Source: Helcococcus kunzii ATCC 51366 (lineage in GTDB: Bacteria; Bacillota; Clostridia; Tissierellales; Peptoniphilaceae). Taken from it: 24,000 bases of DNA. Under the pieces are notes generated by a model. It did no database searches. It was not told where the DNA came from and saw only the letters and a program-made list of their open reading frames with translations. Of this stretch, positions 12,644 through 23,850 are shown one piece after another; positions within the stretch are counted from its first letter, which is position 1; each line of letters begins with the position of its first letter. The translations under genes and the position numbers were made by a program. Location of the stretch: NCBI RefSeq assembly GCF_000245755.1, contig NZ_JH601088.1, positions 1,426,535 to 1,450,534 on the forward strand. The letters run 5' to 3'.

Positions 12644-13591
12644 CTATTGTCTATCTGAATGTATTGACAGTGCCCCTATTAAATTGGCGTCATTTCTATA
12701 TTTACATGTGACAACTTCCGGTTTGCTAAATGGGATGAATGGTATTTTGCCCCAAAGCTTGTCTACATGTTTTCTAATTATTTCGGTGACTTCTTTTCTT
12801 TCGCTTATTCCGCCACCTATTGCAATTTTTTCTACATCGAGAATGCTTTGTATGGTATAAATGCCTGTTGCTGCCAAACTTCCAAATCTATCTAAAGCTT
12901 TTATTGCTTCTTCTTCATTGTTATCGTAGGCTTCAAAGAATTCAATGCCATTTACATCTGCTATAACTTTTCCTGATTTTAGCATTTCATCTTTGTATAT
13001 GTTTATTAGACCTGTTGTTGAAAAGGAGCTTGCCATAAAAGGGCTCAACTGTCCTGTTTTGTCAGCACCAAGGATTGAGATTTCTTCCATATTGGCTAAT
13101 TTTTCGAAATTGGAAACTATATGTGAAAGTTCACCAGACCCGAAAGAATTTCCCATTCTCACTTTGCCATCTAGGATTACTCCACCGCCCGTACCGGTTC
13201 CGAGAACTATTACTACTCCATCTTTTACATCTGATAATGCACCACTCCACGCTTCCGCTTTAGCTGCACATTTTGCATCATTTGCAATGGTGATTGGAAC
13301 ATCTAAATGTTCATTTAGTTTTGCGACAATTGGAAAGTCTTTTACAAACATGTACACACCAAGTGTGTGAGCGATACCTTTATCTGTATCTATCCTACCT
13401 GGTAATGATATGGCTATTGAATCAATGATATCTTCATATTTTTTACACAGATCTACTAGGGAATCAACTACTTCTGTTTTAGATTTATAATTTGAAGGAA
13501 GTTTCCCTTTTTCTAAAAATTTGCCATTTTCATTCATAAGTGCATATTTGGTATATGTGCCACCAACGTCCAAAACTAAATACTTTTTCAT
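12644..13591 (-). CDS. ROK-family sugar kinase (BglK / GlcNAc-kinase-like, no Cys-rich zinc motif)
   Basis: KYLVLDVGGTYTKYAL is the N-terminal ATPase phosphate-1 motif, and VIVLGTGTGGGVILDGKVRMGNSFGSGELSH is the ROK signature region. The RBS is GGAGAG. It is the last gene of the operon. Confidence 0.8.
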   Translation of the reverse strand: MKKYLVLDVGGTYTKYALMNENGKFLEKGKLPSNYKSKTEVVDSLVDLCKKYEDIIDSIAISLPGRIDTDKGIAHTLGVYMFVKDFPIVAKLNEHLDVPITIANDAKCAAKAEAWSGALSDVKDGVVIVLGTGTGGGVILDGKVRMGNSFGSGELSHIVSNFEKLANMEEISILGADKTGQLSPFMASSFSTTGLINIYKDEMLKSGKVIADVNGIEFFEAYDNNEEEAIKALDRFGSLAATGIYTIQSILDVEKIAIGGGISERKEVTEIIRKHVDKLWGKIPFIPFSKPEVVTCKYRNDANLIGALSIHSDRQ

Positions 13592-13612: not shown

Positions 13613-14362
13613 TTATTTATTTGATTTTACCGCAGTGATGAATCTTTCCGCTATTTCTGGATCTACATCAATATATGTATTTTCTGAATCTTTAAATATT
13701 GAATAGTTTATTTTATTTTTTGTTGTAATGTCTTCATAATTTTTCTTACAAGAACTATGGACATATTGAGCGTTTGTAGATTTTAACAGTTCAACCACAT
13801 TGTCAGGATTTATTCCAGAACCCAAAATTATCTCAATTTTATTTTCATATTTTTGAACAAGTTCTTTAATTAAATCTGTATTTTCCAATGCACTTGCTGT
13901 TTGCCCACTAGTTAATACCCTATCTACTTTCAATTCTATTAAATCTTCAATTGATTGGAATGGATCTTTTGTATTATCAAATGCTCTGTGGAATATTGCA
14001 ATCTTTCCAGCATTATGAATCTTCTCTACAAATATTTTCGTTTTTTCCTTATCTATTTCAAAATCTTCTGTTAAGAAACCAAAAACTATTCCGTCAATTT
14101 TTTCATTTAATAAAATATCCAATTCTTCTAACATTTCACTAAATTGATTATCAGTATAGCAAAAACCCGCAGCACGATTTCTAATCATACAATTCTTTTT
14201 GATATTGATATTTTCTGCAATTTTTCTCAATACACCAGGACTTGGAGTCAATCCGCCTAGACATAGTGCAGAATTGATTTCAACACTATCAAATCCTAAC
14301 TTTTCGGCTAATTTTGCGGCTTCATAGTTTTCAATACATAATTCGACTTTGACTTCATTCAT
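13613..14362 (-). CDS. cutC: CutC-family TIM-barrel protein
   Basis: VELCIENYEAAKLAEKLGFDSVEINSALCLGGLTPSPGVL matches the CutC N-terminal consensus (LEVC..s...A...GAdRiELcsaL..GGlTPS.G). The length of 249 aa fits, and the RBS is TGGAGGGAA. Confidence 0.75.
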   Translation of the reverse strand: MNEVKVELCIENYEAAKLAEKLGFDSVEINSALCLGGLTPSPGVLRKIAENINIKKNCMIRNRAAGFCYTDNQFSEMLEELDILLNEKIDGIVFGFLTEDFEIDKEKTKIFVEKIHNAGKIAIFHRAFDNTKDPFQSIEDLIELKVDRVLTSGQTASALENTDLIKELVQKYENKIEIILGSGINPDNVVELLKSTNAQYVHSSCKKNYEDITTKNKINYSIFKDSENTYIDVDPEIAERFITAVKSNK

Positions 14363-14404: not shown

Positions 14405-15526
14405 TTATACAATAATATCACCATCTTCAACTTGATTTAATTTATATATACCATAAGCGTAGATTTTCGCACATTTCACTAAATCATCGATATCCATCCA
14501 TTCGTTTGGTAAATGAGCGATTCCATTTTGGCCTGGAAATGATGGACCAAAAGGAATGACTGTCTTTATTTTATGCGCATAAGTCATACCTGTAGTTGTT
14601 GTTGGCTCGATTTCTTGACCTGTCGCTTCTATATATGCTTGATTTAGTAATTTCACATTTGTAGATTCTGGATTTTTAAGAGCAGCTTCTGTGTAATTTA
14701 TAAGGGAAACTTCTAAATCTTCAGCTTTTTCTTTTATTTTTTCTATAATTTTTTCAATGTCACATTCCCCCATTGAAAGTTGAAATCTTAGACTTTCTTT
14801 TGAATCTTCTGTAAATATTCTATATCCTCTAACTATTAGTTTTCCAAAATACTTATCTTCAAAATCTATACCAAGTCTTTTACCATTATTATCAGCATTT
14901 AGAATGTATTTGTTTAAGAATGTGTATAGTTTTTCTTTATCCCCTGAAACTTTAATATTTGCTCTTGCTCTTTCCCCATATATCGCTGGGAATTTGTTAT
15001 CCGGAACAAAACCAAGCACTGGTAGTTTCTCTTTAGACAAATAGTAGTCTATATCAGACATTCCGCTTTCTTCGTCTGCACCAAATACAATTCTTATTTC
15101 TCTCTTTGGTTTAATCTCTAGGTTTTTTAATGCAATAAGTCCATATAAAGCAGCAATTGCCGGCCCTTTATTATCTAACGCACCTCTTGAATACATTCTA
15201 TTTTCTATAATTTTTCCAGAAAAAGGTGGACAAATCCAATCATCCCAATCACCTTCTGGCACTACATCTAAATGTCCAAAAATTCCCATGTGTTCTTCTG
15301 AATCACCATATTTTGCATACGCCATATATCCATCAACATTTTTCATCGTAAAATTTTCTCTCTCACAAATTTGTAAAATTGCATCTAATACTTTTCTACA
15401 ATTCTCTCCAAAAGGTGCATTTTCTTTTGGAGATGATTTTACACTTGGGATATTAATTATCTTTACTAAATCCTCTATCATTTGGTCTTTAAGTCTATCT
15501 ATTTCAGCAAATAACTTTTTTTTCAT
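14405..15526 (-). CDS. M20-family metallopeptidase (PepV/Sapep-like dipeptidase, short form)
   Basis: GIFGHLDVVPEGDWDDWICPPF, YSRGALDNKGPAIAAL and VFGADEESG are the M20 metal-ligand and catalytic blocks. The start ATG overlaps the upstream stop by 1 nt (TAATG), and the RBS is GGAGGG. Confidence 0.8.
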   Translation of the reverse strand: MKKKLFAEIDRLKDQMIEDLVKIINIPSVKSSPKENAPFGENCRKVLDAILQICERENFTMKNVDGYMAYAKYGDSEEHMGIFGHLDVVPEGDWDDWICPPFSGKIIENRMYSRGALDNKGPAIAALYGLIALKNLEIKPKREIRIVFGADEESGMSDIDYYLSKEKLPVLGFVPDNKFPAIYGERARANIKVSGDKEKLYTFLNKYILNADNNGKRLGIDFEDKYFGKLIVRGYRIFTEDSKESLRFQLSMGECDIEKIIEKIKEKAEDLEVSLINYTEAALKNPESTNVKLLNQAYIEATGQEIEPTTTTGMTYAHKIKTVIPFGPSFPGQNGIAHLPNEWMDIDDLVKCAKIYAYGIYKLNQVEDGDIIV

Positions 15527-16575
15527 TATCCCTCCACGATTTTATTAAAACTTTCTCTATTTGTATTTTTTATAATCAATTCTACTAGTTTAATACATTC
15601 CTCTATATCTGATTTATGGACAATACTATGATTTGTATGCATATATCTTATAGGGATGGAAAGTGATAAGTTAACAACTCCTTTTAACGTCTTATGAATG
15701 TTTCCTGAATCAGTACCACCTCTATTAAAAACTGCATACTGATATTTTATCCCATTATTTTCACATAAATCTTCTATCCATCTCATCAATCCTCTATGAG
15801 CTATGCTATTTGAATCAATAAAAGATAAAACGACTCCACCGCCTAATTTCACAATATTTTCATCAAATGGTGTATCCCCTGCAACGATAGTATCAATTGC
15901 AATTCCAATATCTGGCTCAATCATATGTGTTGAAGTCCTTGCTCCTCTAAGTCCTGGCTCTTCTTGTACAGTAAATGCCCAATAAAGCTCGCAATCGGAT
16001 TTAATATCTTTTTTCAAAGTTTCCAAACCAACAAAACATGAGACCCTATCATCAAAAGCTTTATTTAACAATGTTTTCCCAAATCCTAATTCAGAAAATT
16101 GAGATACAGGAGTGACCATATCTCCAATTTGAATATTCGCCCTTTTTATCTCTTCAGCATCCATTCCTAAATCTAGATACATTTTATCCTTAGGAATGGT
16201 CTTCTCTCTTTCCTTTGGATCTATCATATTATGTGATGAGGGACTGGAAATAACGCCTAAATATTGTTTGTTGTCTCTCGTTGTAAGTGTATAAAGTTGT
16301 CCAACTACTAAATGAGGCCATAAACTTCCTAGCATTCTAAGTTTTAAGAAATTATCTTCAATACTTTCGACTATAAAGCCAACCTCGTCCATATGTGTTG
16401 CGAACATCAGCTTAATCGCATTTTCATCTTTCTTTTTATCATCATATGCAATTATACTGCCGATACCATCATAAAAATAATTTGAAACTTCTTTCTCTAT
16501 CAAATCAGAAACCGACTTTTCAAATGAGGAAACCCCATTAATTGAAGATAATCTATTTAGTAAATCTAAATCCAT
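15526..16575 (-). CDS. M42-family aminopeptidase (FrvX/YsdC/TET type), catalytic residues intact
   Basis: All canonical M42 blocks are present: FATHMDEVGFIV, KAFDDRVS, FTVQEEPGLRGA, GIAIDT and IRYMHTNHS. The start abuts the upstream stop (TAAATG), and the RBS is GGGAGAGA. Confidence 0.85.
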   Translation of the reverse strand: MDLDLLNRLSSINGVSSFEKSVSDLIEKEVSNYFYDGIGSIIAYDDKKKDENAIKLMFATHMDEVGFIVESIEDNFLKLRMLGSLWPHLVVGQLYTLTTRDNKQYLGVISSPSSHNMIDPKEREKTIPKDKMYLDLGMDAEEIKRANIQIGDMVTPVSQFSELGFGKTLLNKAFDDRVSCFVGLETLKKDIKSDCELYWAFTVQEEPGLRGARTSTHMIEPDIGIAIDTIVAGDTPFDENIVKLGGGVVLSFIDSNSIAHRGLMRWIEDLCENNGIKYQYAVFNRGGTDSGNIHKTLKGVVNLSLSIPIRYMHTNHSIVHKSDIEECIKLVELIIKNTNRESFNKIVEG

Positions 16576-17577
16576 TTATCTCTCCCTTCTTATCAAATTA
16601 CTAATATTCTCATCTTCAATAAGCTTCAATAGAAATGTTTCTAACTTTTCAATATCGTTTTTAGAAACAATAACACTTGATGTTCCCATATTTTTCATTG
16701 GTATACCGACGGAAAGTGTTGGTACCCCCGCTAAAGTTTTATGAATAAATGAACCATCATTTCCTAAAACCCCCACATATGGTTTAGTTTCATATCTTTC
16801 TGTAATATACCTCAATAGATTTTGGTCTGGTATCATCTTTGAATCATAATATCCAACAATAACGCCATCTCCTAATTCTATCTTTGGATTTGAATTATTT
16901 ACTTCAAATCCTGTCACTACTATTGCCAAATCTGGCTCAACTACATGGTTTGCAGTTTTTGTGCCTCTAAAACCAATGGTGGATTGAGCAATCGCACCAA
17001 TGTAGAAATTATTATTTAATTTCCTTTCTTTAATTTTTTCAAGTATCTTTATACTCAAATATTGTGGTATTTTTTGAGTTAAACTCCTTCCAATAATATT
17101 ATTTTCCGTTTCTATTAACTCAGACTCTAGCGCAATTAAATCACCTATATTTAATTTTGTGTCGTCAAATGTTTCGACATATAAATCCTCTAACTTAATA
17201 GTTGAGATTTTTTCTTCTAATATTTTCTTATTTATTGTGATAAACCCACTAATATTCTCATTATCTCTAGTTGTGATGTTTACTCTTTGATGCAATAAAG
17301 ATGCTGGAGATAAATCTTCTAAAGTTAAAAAGTTTGCATGATTATCTTTATCAACAGCGCTAACTATTAATCCTATTTCATCCATTGCACATGCAATCAT
17401 TATTTTTTTTCTATTTTCTGGATTTTCAACTAATCTTTTCGCAAATATAGAATAAAGTCTATCTTCTACAATTTCATCAGAATATTTTTTATACCTTTCT
17501 TTTAAGTAAGTATTTAGTTTCTTTTCACAACTTGAAACAGAGTAAATGTCATATATTTCCCTTAACTCATCAAACAT
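16576..17577 (-). CDS. M42-family paralog with all metal-ligand/catalytic positions substituted (probable pseudo-peptidase)
   Basis: It is collinear with the neighbouring M42, but the aligned blocks read CAMDEIGLIV (H to A), RSLTQKIP (DDR to TQK), AIAQSTIGFRGT (EE to QS), AIVVTG (D lost) and MKNMGTSSV (H lost). I moved the start to ATG 17577 (RBS TTGGAGG). The track's start at 17589 is a TTG inside that RBS. Confidence 0.8.
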   Translation of the reverse strand: MFDELREIYDIYSVSSCEKKLNTYLKERYKKYSDEIVEDRLYSIFAKRLVENPENRKKIMIACAMDEIGLIVSAVDKDNHANFLTLEDLSPASLLHQRVNITTRDNENISGFITINKKILEEKISTIKLEDLYVETFDDTKLNIGDLIALESELIETENNIIGRSLTQKIPQYLSIKILEKIKERKLNNNFYIGAIAQSTIGFRGTKTANHVVEPDLAIVVTGFEVNNSNPKIELGDGVIVGYYDSKMIPDQNLLRYITERYETKPYVGVLGNDGSFIHKTLAGVPTLSVGIPMKNMGTSSVIVSKNDIEKLETFLLKLIEDENISNLIRRER

Positions 17578-17598
17578 ATTAACCTCCAATTATAATGA

Positions 17599-17621
17599 AA
17601 GCTGCTATAAAATAGCAGCTT
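17599..17621 (-). other. Intra-operon stem-loop between the GrdB-like and M42 genes
   Basis: AAGCTGCTAT (17599-17608) / ATAGCAGCTT (17612-17621) is a perfect 10-bp palindrome that is GC-rich for this region. It begins 4 nt after the TAA stop at 17628..17626. Only a weak U-tract (TTTCATTAT) follows on the minus strand. Confidence 0.45.
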
Positions 17622-17625
17622 AACA

Positions 17626-18150
17626 TTAATAACATATTTTCTTTTCTAGTTCAGATAGCTCTTCGCTATTTTCGTGTTTTAACTTCATCCATTTTATTAA
17701 ATCTTCAAATGAATCGCTTAATCCAACTCCACCTTTTTTAGGCATTTTTATAATGGAAATTTTATCCTTAAATTCAGCGATTGTTTCAGCATTATCATCT
17801 GACATCATTGTAACAACTGGAATATCAGTTGTTTTGGATATATTATCAGTTAATTCGGCACACATTTTTGCATAATCGATAAAGTTAAAGCAAGGTCCAC
17901 AAACTACCATATCTGGATTAATCTTTTTAACCATTGCTGTCATTTTATCTATTACTTCTTGCTCATTATTTAAGAAATACTGATTTCCGCAATATAATGT
18001 AGCAAAAACTTTAGCATCTATCTTATCAAAATGTGGCTGTAGCATAAGAGCTGATCCTATCCCACCTTTAGCTATTTGTAATCCTACATTAGGATTACTC
18101 TTACCACCGGCACCAGCTAAACCTTGATCGAAAATTAATACTACTTTCAT
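17626..18150 (-). CDS. Stand-alone protein resembling the N-terminal domain of glycine/sarcosine/betaine/D-proline reductase protein B (GrdB/PrdB family)
   Basis: MKVVLIFDQGLAGAGGKSNP...ATLYCGNQYFLNNEQEVIDKMTAMVKKINPDMVVCGPCFNFIDYAKMCAELTDNI parallels my recollection of the GrdB N-terminus (VVHYINQFF.GIGGEEKA ... VVCGD.YF.EN.DEA...I..MI....PD....GPAFNAGRYG.ACG). It is only 174 aa and ends at a TAA. The RBS is AGGAGAA. Confidence 0.55.
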   Translation of the reverse strand: MKVVLIFDQGLAGAGGKSNPNVGLQIAKGGIGSALMLQPHFDKIDAKVFATLYCGNQYFLNNEQEVIDKMTAMVKKINPDMVVCGPCFNFIDYAKMCAELTDNISKTTDIPVVTMMSDDNAETIAEFKDKISIIKMPKKGGVGLSDSFEDLIKWMKLKHENSEELSELEKKICY

Positions 18151-18180: not shown

Positions 18181-19533
18181 CTATAAATCATCAAAAGATA
18201 AATCGTCAAATGATAAATCATCGATTTCATCTTCTTTGTCTTTTTGTAGACGTTCTTCGTCAAGATATTTCTTATCCAATAATTTTAGGAATGGATAATA
18301 TATCAACATATTTATCGCTAAAAGTGCAAATTGAACAATAACAGCGTTGAATGATCCGGTTACCAGATAACCAGAGAATCCAATCGGTGTTGTCCATGGT
18401 AACTGTACCCCGGTTGTGATTGGCATAAATCCGACCATAGTTGCTAACATTGCAAGTACGGTATTTACAACTGGTGTTAATATAAATGGAATAATCATAA
18501 TTGGATTAAGCACTATTGGTAAACCAAAGATAATTGGTTCATTGATACCAAATATACCTGCAGGTAATGATAATCTACCTAACATCTTAATTCTATTTGA
18601 TTTTCCTAAAAACGCCATCATAATTACTAAACCAAGTGTTGATCCACCACCACCAAAGTTACAGAAGAAATCACTAAATCCAGCTGTAAATATATTTGTC
18701 ATTTCTAAACCAGCTTTTGCAGCTTCATAGTTTTCTAAAGTAAGCGCTTTATGTATTGGTGCAAATATTGTATTTGTTACAGCAGGTCCGTTGATTCCAA
18801 AGAACCAGAATAGTGTTGATAAGAATTGATAAATTACTTCAAATGCTGGGTTCTTACCTAAACCAACAAGTGGAGCTTGCAATACTTCATAAATAAAGTT
18901 GTGAGCATATTCGTATGATGTCTTACTAAATAGTATATTTAATACGAAGAAAAATACCATTACAAACGCCGCAGGTATCAACGCTGCAAATGAGTCCATA
19001 ACTGCAGGTGGTACCCCTTCTGGCAATTTGATAACAAGTTTTCTCTTAAACGCCCAATTAAAAATTCTAACTGAAATAATTGCTATTATCATAGATAGGA
19101 ACATTCCAGCTGTCCCTAAATTCCCAAATGAGAAACCTCTAAAAGCATTTTCTGCTTCATTTATAAAAGCTGGATGAGTTTGTGGAGTAATAATTAAAAA
19201 TGATACAAGTGAGATTACTGCTGCACCTATATTATTTGTCATTTTTAATTCTTTAGAGTAACAATACGCTATTGATAATGAAGCTAGTAATGCCACACAG
19301 TCAAATGCTATACCATATACTCTTCCTAAAAACGCATCCCATCCTTCACCAAATATTCCAGCCATAAATTCTGGATATCCCGCGATTGGGAAATTTGCAA
19401 CTAATAAGAATATTGATCCAACAATTACTATTGGAACTGTTACTAAGAATCCATCTCTAATCGCACTTAATACTTTATTTTTTGAAAGCGCATTAGCTAT
19501 TGGACCTAAGATTTTATCCATTTTTTCTAACAT
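18181..19533 (-). CDS. PTS EIIC, lactose/cellobiose/chitobiose (Lac) family, with acidic C-terminal repeat tail
   Basis: A 450-aa polytopic protein with the typical Lac-family EIIC N-terminus (LEKMDKILGPIANALSKNKVLSAIRDGF) and a GINGP-type block. It is flanked by EIIB and EIIA of the same family. The tail reads EDEIDDLSFDDLSFDDL. Confidence 0.85.
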   Translation of the reverse strand: MLEKMDKILGPIANALSKNKVLSAIRDGFLVTVPIVIVGSIFLLVANFPIAGYPEFMAGIFGEGWDAFLGRVYGIAFDCVALLASLSIAYCYSKELKMTNNIGAAVISLVSFLIITPQTHPAFINEAENAFRGFSFGNLGTAGMFLSMIIAIISVRIFNWAFKRKLVIKLPEGVPPAVMDSFAALIPAAFVMVFFFVLNILFSKTSYEYAHNFIYEVLQAPLVGLGKNPAFEVIYQFLSTLFWFFGINGPAVTNTIFAPIHKALTLENYEAAKAGLEMTNIFTAGFSDFFCNFGGGGSTLGLVIMMAFLGKSNRIKMLGRLSLPAGIFGINEPIIFGLPIVLNPIMIIPFILTPVVNTVLAMLATMVGFMPITTGVQLPWTTPIGFSGYLVTGSFNAVIVQFALLAINMLIYYPFLKLLDKKYLDEERLQKDKEDEIDDLSFDDLSFDDL

Positions 19534-19534
19534 A

Positions 19535-19855
19535 CTATCTTCCTTTCTTTAATTCAAATAAGGCTTTTTTCAGCACTCTTTCGCCATTCATAGTACCATA
19601 ATCTTCGGTATCTATTACCATAATAGGTTTACCTAAGTCCCCATATTTATCTTTTACTTTTTCATAAATATGTTTTACTTGAGGTCCCAATAAAATAACA
19701 TCTGGGTTTAATTTTGTAATAATTTCATCCATTTTACCTTGTGAATAAGCCTTAACTTCAATAGGTAAACTATTTTCGTCTGCCACTTTTTGCATTCTTT
19801 GTGCCAATAAGCTTGTAGACATCCCATTATCACAAAATAGATAGAATTTTTTCAT
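19535..19855 (-). CDS. PTS EIIB, lactose/cellobiose family
   Basis: KFYLFCDNGMSTSLLAQRMQ contains the phosphorylatable Cys in the CxxGxSTS context. I moved the start to ATG 19855 (RBS GGGAGAA 8 nt upstream). The stop lies 1 nt before the EIIC ATG. Confidence 0.85.
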   Translation of the reverse strand: MKKFYLFCDNGMSTSLLAQRMQKVADENSLPIEVKAYSQGKMDEIITKLNPDVILLGPQVKHIYEKVKDKYGDLGKPIMVIDTEDYGTMNGERVLKKALFELKKGR

Positions 19856-19923
19856 AGCCATTTCTCCCTTCTTCATATATTTAGGTTTTTTAAGGCAACC
19901 TATAATCCTTTAATACGCTTAGT

Positions 19924-20502
19924 TTATAGTATTTCTTTCACATAAGTAGAAAACATTTTATCTTGTAATGTTTGATTTCTTTTTTTATCTCGAATGGACA
20001 TAATTACAGATATGCCAATAAGGATAAACATCGGTATTGCAATTATCTTATCAATTTTTTCTACATTTTCTATTGAAAGAATTCTTAAAATCGTCCTTAA
20101 AATCACATTAAATGAGCTAAATAGTATCCCTTGAAGTATAAAACAACCAATGAAAAATCGCTTAAATAATGTTAAAAATTGTGGTTTTGTATTATCTTCG
20201 TTTAAAATCTCAATCCTAACAGCTTTCATCATCAATGTTTGAGCTCTTTTTGATTTATAAGGAATGTACACATAATAAATAAAAGCTACAATTAAAGGAA
20301 CGATGATAGATATAATATTGGTCACATTATCATGTTTTACAATATTGCCCATTTTATCTGATTTATTAGTCCAAATAAAAACTAATCTCATAAATAGATT
20401 TAATAATACTGATGAAAAATACCAATCAACAGCAAAGGCAAATACTCTTTTTACAAAATATCCCGCCCTATTTTCCGATTTTACTGTTGTTATTTTTTTC
20501 AT
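19924..20502 (-). CDS. RDD-family small membrane protein
   Basis: AGYFVKRVFAFAVDWYFSSVLLNLF carries the R and first D, and the C-terminal QTLQDKMFSTYV carries the second D. There are 3-4 TM segments. The start overlaps the EIIA stop (ATGA, 20502-20499). Confidence 0.65.
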   Translation of the reverse strand: MKKITTVKSENRAGYFVKRVFAFAVDWYFSSVLLNLFMRLVFIWTNKSDKMGNIVKHDNVTNIISIIVPLIVAFIYYVYIPYKSKRAQTLMMKAVRIEILNEDNTKPQFLTLFKRFFIGCFILQGILFSSFNVILRTILRILSIENVEKIDKIIAIPMFILIGISVIMSIRDKKRNQTLQDKMFSTYVKEIL

Positions 20503-20816
20503 TTTAGATCCTTGACTAATTTTAATATACTTATATTTTCTTCACATATTAATCTAAAATTATCTGCCGCCATTAGCTGATCTTCAGCATGCATCAATAT
20601 CAAACTAAAATCTATTTTTTCACCATTTGTTTCCTTATATATTAATTCAGAATGTGCTTCATGCGCTTTTAGATATTCTTTTTTTCCCTCTTCGATTAGT
20701 TCTTCTGCTTTTTCAAAATCAAATTTTCTTGCATATCTCATAGCCTCAATATAACTTGATTTTGCAGCCCCTGAAGAGGATATTATCTGAAAGCAAATCA
20801 TTTCAATATTTTCCAT
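20499..20816 (-). CDS. PTS EIIA, lactose/cellobiose family
   Basis: A 105-aa all-helical small protein. SLILMHAEDQLMAAD contains the conserved phospho-His context of EIIA(Lac/Cel). The RBS is AAGGGGTGAAA. Confidence 0.85.
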   Translation of the reverse strand: MENIEMICFQIISSSGAAKSSYIEAMRYARKFDFEKAEELIEEGKKEYLKAHEAHSELIYKETNGEKIDFSLILMHAEDQLMAADNFRLICEENISILKLVKDLK

Positions 20817-20840: not shown

Positions 20841-21809
20841 CTAAAGTAATTTAAGTTCTGCGGTACGAGTTTTCATATATTCGTCTAACCATTCTTGAGA
20901 AGCTTCATAATGAATGCTTTTATCATCTTCTCTTTTTGTCAAATACACTTTAGGTGCATGATTTTCAGATGCATATACAAATGAAAATCCTTCGATATTG
21001 GTTGAAACACCATATTCACCTTTGTTATTAATAGCAACTACAGATAAATCTCCCGCTTTTCCTCTTAATTTAATTAGTTTTTTTTCTAAATCTGAAACAG
21101 CTTTATCACACGCTTGCTGAGGAGTTAAACCTTCAGACATCAATCTAACAATTTCATAAGAGATACAACCTTTCATTAAGTCTTCACCTAATCCAGTTGC
21201 ACTTGCGCCACCAATTTCAGAATCTGCATAAAATCCTGATCCAATAACTGGACTATCTCCGACTCTTCCTTTTTTCTTCATAAAAAGCCCAGATGTTGAA
21301 GTACCTACAGATATTTTATTGTTTGTATCTAAGCAAACAACTCCAACTGTATCATGTCCGATATATGGTTTTAATTCTGATTCTTCCTGTTTTATTCTAT
21401 CTTCCTTCACTCTATTTTTGTAATGTATGATAGCTCTATCGGTTAGCATATTTTTTCTTTCAAAACCCGCCTTATGTGCATATCTCTCTGCTCCATCTCC
21501 CACTAAAAAACAATTTACTTTTTCATCAGAAAGTTTTCTAGCAATAGAAATAGGATTACTAAAATCCCTAATACCAGCAATCGCACCAATATTGAAATTA
21601 TTTCCGTCCATAAAACCAGCATCCATTTCTACTTCCATGTCTTCATTAGGTAATCCACCATAACCAACTGATTTAAAAAATGGAAAATCTTCTACATCTT
21701 TTATAATATTTTCAACAATTTCTCCTGAATCTTCTCCCTCTTTTAAGCATTTATAATTATTTTCAATGCCTTCTAAGGACATTCTCCAGGTACCAATTAC
21801 TGCCCACAT
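20841..21809 (-). CDS. Cytoplasmic N4-(beta-N-acetylglucosaminyl)-L-asparaginase (glycosylasparaginase, Ntn hydrolase)
   Basis: It is collinear with human/Flavobacterium-type glycosylasparaginase: VIGTW (cf. VVNTW), SVGYGGLPNEDMEVEMDAGFMDG (cf. SVGFGGSPDE...LDAMIMDG), the autoprocessing site GHD|TVGVV, GRVGDSPVIGSGFYAD, GASATGLGEDLM and FSFVYASEN. There is no signal peptide. The RBS is AGGAGGA. It is the first gene of the operon. Confidence 0.85.
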   Translation of the reverse strand: MWAVIGTWRMSLEGIENNYKCLKEGEDSGEIVENIIKDVEDFPFFKSVGYGGLPNEDMEVEMDAGFMDGNNFNIGAIAGIRDFSNPISIARKLSDEKVNCFLVGDGAERYAHKAGFERKNMLTDRAIIHYKNRVKEDRIKQEESELKPYIGHDTVGVVCLDTNNKISVGTSTSGLFMKKKGRVGDSPVIGSGFYADSEIGGASATGLGEDLMKGCISYEIVRLMSEGLTPQQACDKAVSDLEKKLIKLRGKAGDLSVVAINNKGEYGVSTNIEGFSFVYASENHAPKVYLTKREDDKSIHYEASQEWLDEYMKTRTAELKLL

Positions 21810-21940: not shown

Positions 21941-21957
21941 CATAATTGGAGGTTTCT

Positions 21958-23850
21958 ATGACAAATAGACAAAACCAAATAATTCAATTGCTTATGGATA
22001 ATAAATGGATTACGGGGTCTAACCTTTCTATCATTTTAGGAGTTTCAGATAGAACAATACGTTCAGACATTAAAAATATCAATAATAAATTAGGTTATAC
22101 TTTAATACATTCAGACAATAGATTGGGTTATAAAATTAAAGACAAAAATATAAAATTGACTTCAAATAAGAAAATAGCGGAAACACCATATGAAAGAAAA
22201 TTATACATTCTAAAAAAATTACTTCTTCATAAAGGTGAAATAGACATCTATGATGATATTATCGATGAATTATTTGTAAGTGACGCCACTTTATTAAATG
22301 ATATTAGTGATATAAACAAAGATCTTTACGAATACAAAAAAATTTCAATCAGTAAGAATGGTTCAAAAATACAAATTATCGGCGATGAAAAGTGCATTCG
22401 TAGATTATATAAGGATTTGCTAATTAAAGAAACGGAAAATAATTTATTTAACATAAATCAAATTGCCTTACTTTACAAAAATTTCGACTTAATAGAGATG
22501 AAAAATATTTTGGAAAAACTTCTCGAAGAATATAACTATATAATTGATGAAGTTGCATTCCCTATTTTAATGATTCATTTGGGGGTCAGCATTGATAGGA
22601 TAATTTCCAAAAACACTTTAGACATCATTGAATCAAATAATGAAATTAAAAATAGTGTAGAATATTTAATTTCAAAGAAGTTTTTTGGTGAAATCAATAA
22701 ACGTTTTAGCATAGATTCAGACGAAGCAGAGGTCGCCCTATTTGCAAAAACTCTTATGAGTAAAAATAGAAACTATTCTAGAGATTTATCCAATATTACA
22801 GAATATAAGATCATAGTTAAAGACCTATTAAAATATATCTATGAAGATTATGGCATTAATTTCTTATCCGATGAAGAATTAATAAACAGCTTATGCGTCC
22901 ACATAGAAGCTTTGATTGCCAGGATTAAGCTAAATGCTCCAACCACAAATCTCTTCTTGGACGAAATAAAAAAAAGATATCCATTCGTTTTTGAATTAGC
23001 CCTAATCAGTGCACATTATTTAAATGAAAAGCTTGATGTGATCATCACAGAAGAAGAAATAGGATTTTTATGCCTACATTTGGGCACGGCATACGAAAGA
23101 AATTACATGCACAAATATAGAGTGCTACTGATTTCTCCTCAAATAAACATAATTAACAATAAATTAGAAGACAATATCAATAAATTCTTTAATAACAAAT
23201 TAGAAATTGTTGACAAACTAAACTATTTCGAAGAAAATGCGGTACTAAAGATTAATCCGGATATAATAATATCAAACACACAAATTTATCATTCGTTAGA
23301 CATTCCTACAATATTTGTATCACCCTTCTTTTTACCCGAAGATGAATCAAATATATTGCAAACAATCAATGCCTTGGATAATAAACGATTAAAGAAAGAA
23401 TACAGTAAATACCTTGACGAAATATTAAGTAGTGAAAATTTCTACACCAGAATGGACTTTGACAGCAAAGAAGATGCCATCAAATTTTTATGCGATAAAC
23501 TAGTGGAAAAAGGCAATATCACCAACAATTACTATAGCAGTGTAATAAATAGAGAAAAAATGTCCACAACATCATTTTCTCAAGGATTTGCCATTCCTCA
23601 CAGCATTGATACAGATGATATCATCAAATCAAGCATCTCCGTCCTTATTTTAGATAACCCCATCGATTGGGGAAATTACAGAGTGCAAATAATATTTTTA
23701 CTAACCATAAAAAATATCAACAGCCCCGCACTAAAACTATTCTTCAATTGGATGGACGTCATCGCCTCCGACGTAGGCAAATTCTCAAAATACTTAACAT
23801 GCAAGTCATTTGAAGAATTTATAGATATTTTTGATAATGACAATAATTAA
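21958..23850 (+). CDS. PRD-domain transcriptional activator of the LicR/MtlR/ManR type (HTH + 2 PRD + EIIB-like + EIIA(Mtl/Fru)-like)
   Basis: The N-terminal HTH is NRQNQIIQLLMDNKWITGSNLSIILGVSDRTIRSDIKNIN. PRD-type conserved His contexts are present (ILMIHLGVSIDRI, SLCVHIEALIARI, FLCLHLGTAYER). The C-terminal EIIA-2 domain has GFAIPHS. There is no sigma-54 AAA+ module. I moved the start to ATG 21958 (RBS GGAGG). The track's start at 21946 is a TTG. Confidence 0.85.
   Translation: MTNRQNQIIQLLMDNKWITGSNLSIILGVSDRTIRSDIKNINNKLGYTLIHSDNRLGYKIKDKNIKLTSNKKIAETPYERKLYILKKLLLHKGEIDIYDDIIDELFVSDATLLNDISDINKDLYEYKKISISKNGSKIQIIGDEKCIRRLYKDLLIKETENNLFNINQIALLYKNFDLIEMKNILEKLLEEYNYIIDEVAFPILMIHLGVSIDRIISKNTLDIIESNNEIKNSVEYLISKKFFGEINKRFSIDSDEAEVALFAKTLMSKNRNYSRDLSNITEYKIIVKDLLKYIYEDYGINFLSDEELINSLCVHIEALIARIKLNAPTTNLFLDEIKKRYPFVFELALISAHYLNEKLDVIITEEEIGFLCLHLGTAYERNYMHKYRVLLISPQINIINNKLEDNINKFFNNKLEIVDKLNYFEENAVLKINPDIIISNTQIYHSLDIPTIFVSPFFLPEDESNILQTINALDNKRLKKEYSKYLDEILSSENFYTRMDFDSKEDAIKFLCDKLVEKGNITNNYYSSVINREKMSTTSFSQGFAIPHSIDTDDIIKSSISVLILDNPIDWGNYRVQIIFLLTIKNINSPALKLFFNWMDVIASDVGKFSKYLTCKSFEEFIDIFDNDNN

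Follow-up and report, generated by a model that had tools for sequence, protein, structure and literature searches.

An M42 aminopeptidase paralog that has lost its metal site, and that is encoded directly upstream of an intact M42 aminopeptidase, was analysed in a 24,000-nucleotide stretch of the genome of Helcococcus kunzii ATCC 51366 (contig NZ_JH601088.1, positions 1,426,535 to 1,450,534; hereafter the window, whose coordinates are used unless contig positions are named). The ligand-less protein (16576-17577) is referred to below as the dead M42 and the intact protein (15526-16575) as the active M42 or the partner. Comparison with homologous sequences gives good support for the dead M42 being a pseudoenzyme maintained by purifying selection, and we consider it fairly probable (roughly 0.6) that it takes part, as a non-catalytic subunit, in a hetero-oligomeric TET peptidase for the trimming of glyco-asparagine peptides. 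The physical association of the two proteins, as well as their stoichiometry, the effect of the dead subunit on specificity and the exact substrate, are what we infer from the genomic evidence presented below. The features of immediate concern are as follows.

16576-17577, minus strand: dead M42, 333 amino acids, ATG at 17577
17582-17586, minus strand: GGAGG ribosome-binding site of the dead M42, read from the sequence, seven bases upstream of the ATG at 17577
15526-16575, minus strand: active M42 aminopeptidase, 349 amino acids, H-D-D-E-E-D-H complete

Fold and metal site of the dead M42

Both proteins matched Pfam PF05343 (Peptidase_M42), the active M42 with 275 bits and the dead M42 with 122 bits (cut-off 23.2 bits) over profile positions 10-290 of 292. 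An AlphaFold2 (AF2) model of the latter, based on an alignment of 31 sequences, had a pLDDT of 89.7 and a pTM of 0.90 and matched solved TET subunits (9qr6, 9a5r, 5ds0 and 3kl9) in Foldseek with TM-scores of 0.83-0.90, both results indicating the two-domain fold of a TET subunit. The closest database protein (98% identity) was also from Helcococcus kunzii, and H. kunzii copies are named either 'hypothetical protein' or 'zinc-binding metallopeptidase family protein' by NCBI, the second of which is misleading. Homology and fold place the dead M42 in the M42 family, although it falls outside the catalytic definition of that family. Its position immediately in front of an intact M42, as reported in a first-pass annotation made from the sequence alone, was confirmed by the two profile matches and by the abutting stop and start codons of the two genes.

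Ligand columns were read from three independent alignments (phmmer to PDB chains, MAFFT of 102 homologs and hmmalign to the family profile), with the ligand and catalytic residues of PhTET2 numbered according to PMC8993905. All three placed A64 of the dead M42 at His68, T167 at the bridging Asp182, S199 at the catalytic Glu212, T200 at Glu213, T222 at Asp235 and G298 at His323. Thus none of the five metal ligands remains, the catalytic Glu is likewise replaced, and the sole survivor is D66, the non-ligand Asp of the HxDE motif. In the active M42 all seven residues (H, D, D, E, E, D, H) are present. These results agree with the first-pass annotation, in which every canonical block was described as intact in the downstream protein and altered in the upstream one, except that the QEE block aligned with QST and not, as had been stated, with AQS. 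According to published sequence criteria (PMC12516491, PhTET1 numbering), active M42/TET enzymes are recognised by seven catalytic residues (H62, D64, D173, E205, E206, [DE]228 and H307) and five glycines (G44, G77, G85, G86 and G211). Only the equivalent of D64 (D66) was found among the former. The glycine set, located in the alignments by counting residues from the HxD motif, was likewise incomplete: the equivalent of G211 (G205) is invariant, and at the sites of G44 and G77 most of the dead clade also has Gly, H. kunzii having Y42 and N79 instead.

A functional metallopeptidase with ligands merely shifted in the alignment, a case that the first-pass annotation had raised against its own interpretation, is highly improbable given these data and was not borne out. 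Apart from the agreement of the three alignment methods, the distance from the second Glu to the Asp of the metal site is 22 residues in the dead M42, identical to that in canonical M42 enzymes, which argues that the ligand columns are in register. Nor was any conserved His, Cys, Asp or Glu noted beside the lost ligand positions in the dead-clade alignment.

The ligand residues were absent from all of the 78 closest homologs (37-98% identity), the next matches (P0079 onward) being canonical, and the same columns were also lost, according to hmmalign, in more divergent operon-resident groups. Former ligand positions within the dead clade were variable (5 residue types at position 64, 8 at position 167 and 5 at position 200) except for Ser199, at the position of the catalytic Glu, which was invariant in the H. 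kunzii-type clade (78/78) and found in most divergent groups. This invariance, together with the observation that the most conserved blocks of the protein contain the motifs GNDGSFIHKT and GFRGTKT, favours a neo-functionalised enzyme in which the pocket has been rebuilt around Ser199 and the conserved polar residues D66, E67, R204, D274, H279 and K280 for metal-independent chemistry on a phospho-sugar or glycosylamine. We regard such an enzyme as unlikely. Nearly all invariant polar residues other than S199 and E87 are the same in the active partner and in canonical M42 enzymes and therefore look structural, the divergent members P0232 and P0243 have Ala or Glu at the position of S199, and the variability of most ex-ligand positions argues against a rebuilt site and speaks, as far as residue conservation can indicate, for a pocket that has been relaxed.

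The two most strongly conserved blocks of the dead clade (residues 201-210 and 271-280) were also the parts of the AF2 monomer model with the lowest confidence. In the Foldseek table, chains of metal-free dimeric TmPep1050 had 306-311 modelled residues as compared with 331 for the dodecameric form (approximately 20-25 fewer), and segments like 201-210 and 271-280 may, to judge from the model, become ordered only upon assembly.

Retention of the dead M42 and its pairing with the active M42

The open reading frame of the dead M42 was intact (324-347 amino acids, no stop codon or frameshift) in 41 of 41 complete dead-active pairs. The median ratio of nonsynonymous to synonymous substitution rates (dN/dS) by the Nei-Gojobori (NG86) method for 108 usable pairs was 0.113 for the dead gene, within a range of 0.05-0.15, and 0.101 for the active gene. 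In support of a neutral relic, that is, a pseudogene still open by chance, no other protein of the operon evolves as fast as the dead M42 (identity between loci of 32-51%, versus 41-56% for the partner), whose pairwise NG86 dN is 1.27 times that of the active gene. This explanation is nevertheless already contradicted by the intact reading frames and the dN/dS values, as well as by the occurrence of dead M42s as a single clade across Bacillota lineages and Fusobacteriota, and can hardly be entertained. Thus, loss of catalytic residues, purifying selection and conservation across species were all found, as expected of a pseudoenzyme; the retained non-catalytic role suggested in the first-pass annotation is upheld, and the pseudogene-like decay of orthologs that it had named as a contrary outcome did not materialise.

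Scanning one genome per species gave 40 loci, whose carriers include Anaerococcus, Lachnospiraceae, Dielma, Allobaculum, Bulleidia and Solobacterium. More divergent ligand-less groups came from a profile search against 1.84 billion cluster representatives; they occurred in the same operon wherever context was readable, and their cluster members include proteins named from Granulicatella and Leptotrichia. Carriers of the dead clade comprise Peptoniphilaceae, Lachnospiraceae, Erysipelotrichaceae, Granulicatella and Leptotrichia. The two proteins were also distributed together: both are present in the H. kunzii genome and neither type was found in 400 further genomes drawn from the same phylum, in which the best matches to the partner had 35-39% identity and the single match in the dead-type search (genome G230) was a canonical M42. 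GC content stays close to 30% throughout the window, so there is no compositional sign of recent transfer, though the distribution is patchy.

In a densely sampled tree, all 15 operon-resident dead M42s fell in one clade (support 100/97) and the partners formed a separate clade (98/92) with two unlabelled representatives nested inside. The dead clade grouped with another M42 subfamily (P0237/P0238-like) and not with the partner clade. Recent tandem duplication as the origin of the pair was rejected, monophyly of dead and partner proteins having an approximately unbiased (AU) test p of 0.00076; the sister placement of the two (88/80) in an earlier tree with sparse outgroups is an artefact of sparse sampling. 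The dead-active pairing is old and brings together two different M42 subfamilies.

Several other M42 proteins were noted in the course of these comparisons. The nearest tree neighbours of the dead clade are a partly degenerate group (P0233, P0235, P0236, P0237, P0240, P0247, P0249, P0251, P0265 and P0271) in which some ligands are present and the catalytic Glu is often lost, and which lies close to the canonical, YsdC/PepA-like P0238. A third gene of the H. kunzii genome that matched the M42 profile (contig positions 1388506-1389375, 343 amino acids, motifs HLDT and NNEEIGYG) lay at the end of a very long branch, of 3.9 substitutions per site, and belongs to a subfamily different from those of both operon M42s. 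One 90% cluster mixed dead M42s of 329 amino acids with GrdB-related proteins of 173 amino acids from Leptotrichia, which is probably a clustering artefact of fused or overlapping gene calls and calls for caution with regard to member counts.

Coupling of the two genes is tight in H. kunzii and elsewhere. As noted in the first-pass annotation, the dead M42 has a good ribosome-binding site (GGAGG) and its TAA directly precedes the ATG of the active gene, whose own ribosome-binding site (AAGGGAG) lies within the last codons of the dead M42. In 41 loci the dead stop lay -14 to +2 nucleotides from the active start; the corresponding distance for three divergent loci was +1 to +5. The two genes are in the same frame in H. 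kunzii, with a single TAA between them (junction at 16573-16578), and overlap out of frame by 1-14 nucleotides in other species; the in-frame layout is not conserved, so read-through is unlikely to matter.

Evolutionary rates of the two proteins also point to a connection. Distance matrices of the dead and active M42 correlated with r = 0.94 (36 loci), and after controlling for five other operon proteins the partial r of 0.67 was the highest among 21 operon protein pairs and remained 0.67 after thinning to 20 loci, although these figures are inflated by relatedness, the two proteins are in addition homologous, and the result is suggestive only. Corresponding values for the dead M42 were -0.03 with the GrdB-like protein and 0.11 with enzyme IIC (EIIC) of a phosphotransferase system (PTS), both encoded upstream.

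Given the published positions of PhTET2 R217, R220 and F224 at the dimer-dimer interface (PMC4220976), interface residues of the H. kunzii-type proteins were compared at these three sites, at which there are no indels; mapping of H248 and I292 was unsafe because of indels. Among 26 dead-clade sequences, the equivalent of R217 was Arg in every case (R204), that of R220 (position of K207) was Lys in 20, Gln in 5 and Met in 1, and that of F224 (position 211) was Tyr in 20, His in 4, Phe in 1 and Asn in 1. The partner has Arg, Arg and mostly Glu or Asp (16/26) at the same sites. The asymmetry at residue 211, mostly aromatic in the dead clade as opposed to mostly acidic in the partner, could on this comparison reflect a hetero-specific contact. 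Heteromers of M42 paralogs have been described in the form of PhTET2-PhTET3 heterododecamers of Pyrococcus horikoshii (PMC4220976) and of YtoP-YsdC of Bacillus subtilis, detected by in-cell cross-linking (PDB 9a5r; PMC10090944).

The same data bear on a stand-alone dead M42, which would form its own dimer or oligomer outside the active M42 particle and bind, hold or scaffold glyco-asparagine, glycopeptides or an operon component such as the GrdB-like protein or EIIC. The fixed order EIIC-GrdB-like-dead-active is also compatible with a tie to the genes upstream, TET assembly may be prevented when the metals are lost, and blocks 41-60 and 86-100, which are more conserved in the dead clade than the same regions are in the partner, could form a new binding surface. 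A role of this kind is possible, though we judge it improbable, in view of the much lower partial correlations with the upstream proteins than with the active M42, and of the spacing of the genes: the GrdB-like and dead genes are separated by a variable and sometimes long gap (anything between an overlap and a spacing of 235 nucleotides), whereas at most 5 nucleotides ever separate the dead and active genes, which otherwise abut or overlap. The hetero-oligomeric assignment proposed in the first-pass annotation is favoured by indirect evidence (gene coupling, co-distribution, the highest rate covariation and retention of interface residues), its physical component being presumptive, so that the earlier interpretation as a whole is partly supported.

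Natural tandem M42-M42 proteins of about 700 amino acids, a further precedent for a mixed M42 complex, were also found among cluster representatives (P0234, P0252, P0255, P0269, P0281, P0334 and P0319). In P0319 a canonical first half is followed by a degenerate second half (GDSKRN-), and the second half of P0334 is without the catalytic Glu. The second halves lay outside the operon dead clade in a tree made with FastTree, and pairing of a live with a dead M42 has thus apparently also occurred independently.

Operon context and proposed role in glyco-asparagine utilisation

The remaining features of the operon and its surroundings are as follows.

17599-17621, minus strand: hairpin of 10 perfectly paired bp in the gap that separates the GrdB-like gene from the dead M42, weak U tract after
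17626-18150, minus strand: GrdB-related protein without selenocysteine (NCBIfam NF041545, 240 bits)
18181-19533, minus strand: PTS EIIC, lactose/cellobiose (Lac/Cel) family
19535-19876, minus strand: PTS EIIB, Lac/Cel family, from Pfam labels of orthologs
19924-20502, minus strand: RDD-family membrane protein
20499-20816, minus strand: PTS EIIA, Lac/Cel family, from Pfam labels of orthologs
20841-21809, minus strand: Asparaginase_2 / glycosylasparaginase-type N-terminal nucleophile (Ntn) hydrolase, 231 bits
14405-15526, minus strand: M20 dipeptidase, Sapep/PepV type
13613-14362, minus strand: CutC-family protein
12644-13591, minus strand: ROK-family sugar kinase, found only in the H. kunzii operon
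21946-23850, plus strand: divergently transcribed regulator, orthologs with HTH, PRD and PTS_EIIA_2 domains

An invariant core, EIIB-EIIC-GrdB-like-dead M42-active M42, was present in every locus examined, with the GrdB-like gene as the immediate upstream neighbour of the dead M42. To this core nearly all loci add the Asparaginase_2 protein, M20 dipeptidase, CutC, RDD protein, EIIA and PRD regulator, most add genes for a MupG-like 6-phospho-glycosidase and a YitT membrane protein, and some carry DUF7916. H. kunzii has the ROK kinase instead, a match to which was confined to its locus among the loci compared, and from these differences the sugar part of the substrate may differ between lineages. 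The M20 dipeptidase has 373 amino acids as opposed to 447-466 for Sapep/PepV models and matched in two separate stretches, and may thus lack some of the lid region that is usual in such enzymes. The 71-nucleotide context of the hairpin at 17599-17621 folds at -19.2 kcal/mol (z -3.7 versus shuffled sequences), and the hairpin might act as a partial terminator, or in processing or stabilising the mRNA, and so separate the M42 pair from the PTS genes. A scan of the operon for promoters and terminators returned no more sites than did shuffled sequence.

Gene content places the operon beside two known loci for glycosylated asparagine, as the first-pass annotation had anticipated in proposing a glyco-asparagine context. 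The Enterococcus faecalis ega locus, as described in PMC11549559, combines a glycosylasparaginase (EgaG) and a dipeptidase with Lac/Cel EIIB and EIIC and a 'putative oxidoreductase', and was reported to be needed for use of N-acetylglucosamine-asparagine (GlcNAc-Asn) in the title of Combret et al. 2024. The Lactobacillus casei alf-2 cluster (PMC6960285) comprises asnA2, pepV and the GlcNAc kinase gene sugK. By Pfam and NCBIfam assignments, the full gene set given for ega in that description was found in the H. kunzii operon, the 'putative oxidoreductase' corresponding to the GrdB-related protein. The H. kunzii-type operon differs from ega, as there described, in the addition of the M42 pair, CutC, the RDD protein and either the ROK kinase or the MupG-like and YitT proteins. 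An extended version of the ega (GlcNAc-Asn) locus is thus a description that gene content supports. The GrdB-like gene is retained in ega with no M42 listed in the same description, which further argues against a stand-alone dead M42 tied to the upstream genes. Since M42 genes do not feature in either description, the M42 pair would be an addition, and plausibly serves in the use of glyco-asparagine peptides rather than of the free glyco-amino acid.

The proposed role in trimming such peptides would proceed as follows. Glycoprotein-derived GlcNAc-Asn and short glyco-asparagine peptides would be imported by the Lac/Cel PTS. The dead M42, unable to bind two catalytic metals or to activate water, would be made in a fixed ratio with the active M42 encoded downstream and would assemble with it into a hetero-oligomeric TET-type particle. 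This pair would remove residues N-terminal to the glyco-asparagine and the PepV-like M20 dipeptidase would take off its C-terminal neighbour, after which the glycosylasparaginase, which requires free alpha-amino and alpha-carboxyl groups, would release Asp and GlcNAc, the latter then being phosphorylated in H. kunzii by the ROK kinase. The dead subunit would set either the architecture of the particle or its substrate selectivity, for example by lowering the number of active sites at each apex or by offering the bulky glycan a vestigial pocket. In a more specific form, which we put forward tentatively and hold to be considerably less likely than the general proposal, the dead M42 would be an obligate assembly and specificity subunit that forms 1:1 heterodimers with the active M42 in a TET-like cage with half of the pockets metal-free, and these vestigial pockets would hold GlcNAc(-6-P) while the neighbouring live site trims glyco-asparagine peptides. 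If this form were true, TET assembly would be metal-independent on one subunit and the particle would be a dedicated cytoplasmic glycopeptide aminopeptidase.

Several observations weigh against a hetero-oligomeric peptidase of this kind. Metals, especially that of site M1, stabilise the TET oligomeric interface and dodecamer (PMC8993905) and EDTA reduces PhTETs to dimers (PMC4220976), so that a metal-free subunit may not support a classical dodecamer. Of the conserved glycines, G85 (PhTET1 numbering) is replaced in the dead clade by an invariant Glu (E87) and the position of G86 is variable. Rate covariation between two homologs in one operon can arise without contact. With regard to the substrate, no M42 genes are listed for the ega locus as described in PMC11549559, from which it follows that the M42 pair is not needed for use of GlcNAc-Asn as such, and pepV was dispensable for use of the free glyco-amino acid in L. 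casei (PMC6960285).

On these findings, many bacteria of the mouth, gut and skin (Bacillota and Leptotrichia) may import and trim glyco-asparagine peptides in addition to using the free glyco-amino acid. Two unstudied proteins would thereby be added to the pathway for glycoprotein-derived GlcNAc-Asn, which has been linked to host colonisation and infection in Enterococcus.

Comparison with known M42 systems

M42/TET enzymes are textbook examples of self-compartmentalised aminopeptidases in which metals are held to be necessary both for catalysis and for assembly of the cage, and the dead M42 offers a natural test of the metal dependence of this assembly. In common with canonical M42 enzymes such as MJ0555 (9qr6), Streptococcus pneumoniae PepA (3kl9), TmPep1050 (4p6y) and YsdC (1vhe), the dead M42 consists of a catalytic domain with an inserted PDZ-like domain and contains the structural motifs SGxE, D..LG, GD, G.RG and IH. 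It differs from these enzymes in the replacement of six of the seven catalytic residues and in the presence of Glu and a variable residue in place of G85 and G86.

The eukaryotic proteasome, with its inactive beta subunits, is one example of an oligomeric hydrolase in which dead paralogs are kept as structural or regulatory subunits, although their fold and family are not those of the dead M42. The YtoP and YsdC proteins of B. subtilis, which we take to be encoded by non-adjacent genes and both to have a canonical site, include to our knowledge no dead subunit. The H. kunzii proteins resemble them in being a bacterial M42 paralog pair, and chain 9a5r_A gave the highest query-normalised TM-score (0.90) to the dead model.

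The arrangement proposed for the H. kunzii pair is comparable to PhTET2-PhTET3 (PMC4220976), in which a single tetrahedral particle contains two M42 paralogs, is assembled from dimers and has both subunit types at each apex. In Pyrococcus, both subunits are active and have complementary specificity, whereas the dead M42 of H. kunzii is without a metal site; moreover, the H. kunzii genes, whose products are presumed to associate, are translationally coupled in a sugar-PTS operon. Full-text literature searches returned no description of a ligand-less M42 partner, or of a pseudoenzyme-enzyme heteromer in clan MH, family M42, and the nearest described systems are active-active M42 heteromers. As far as these searches show, a conserved metal-free subunit beside a live one would be the first pseudoenzyme partner in the M42 family.

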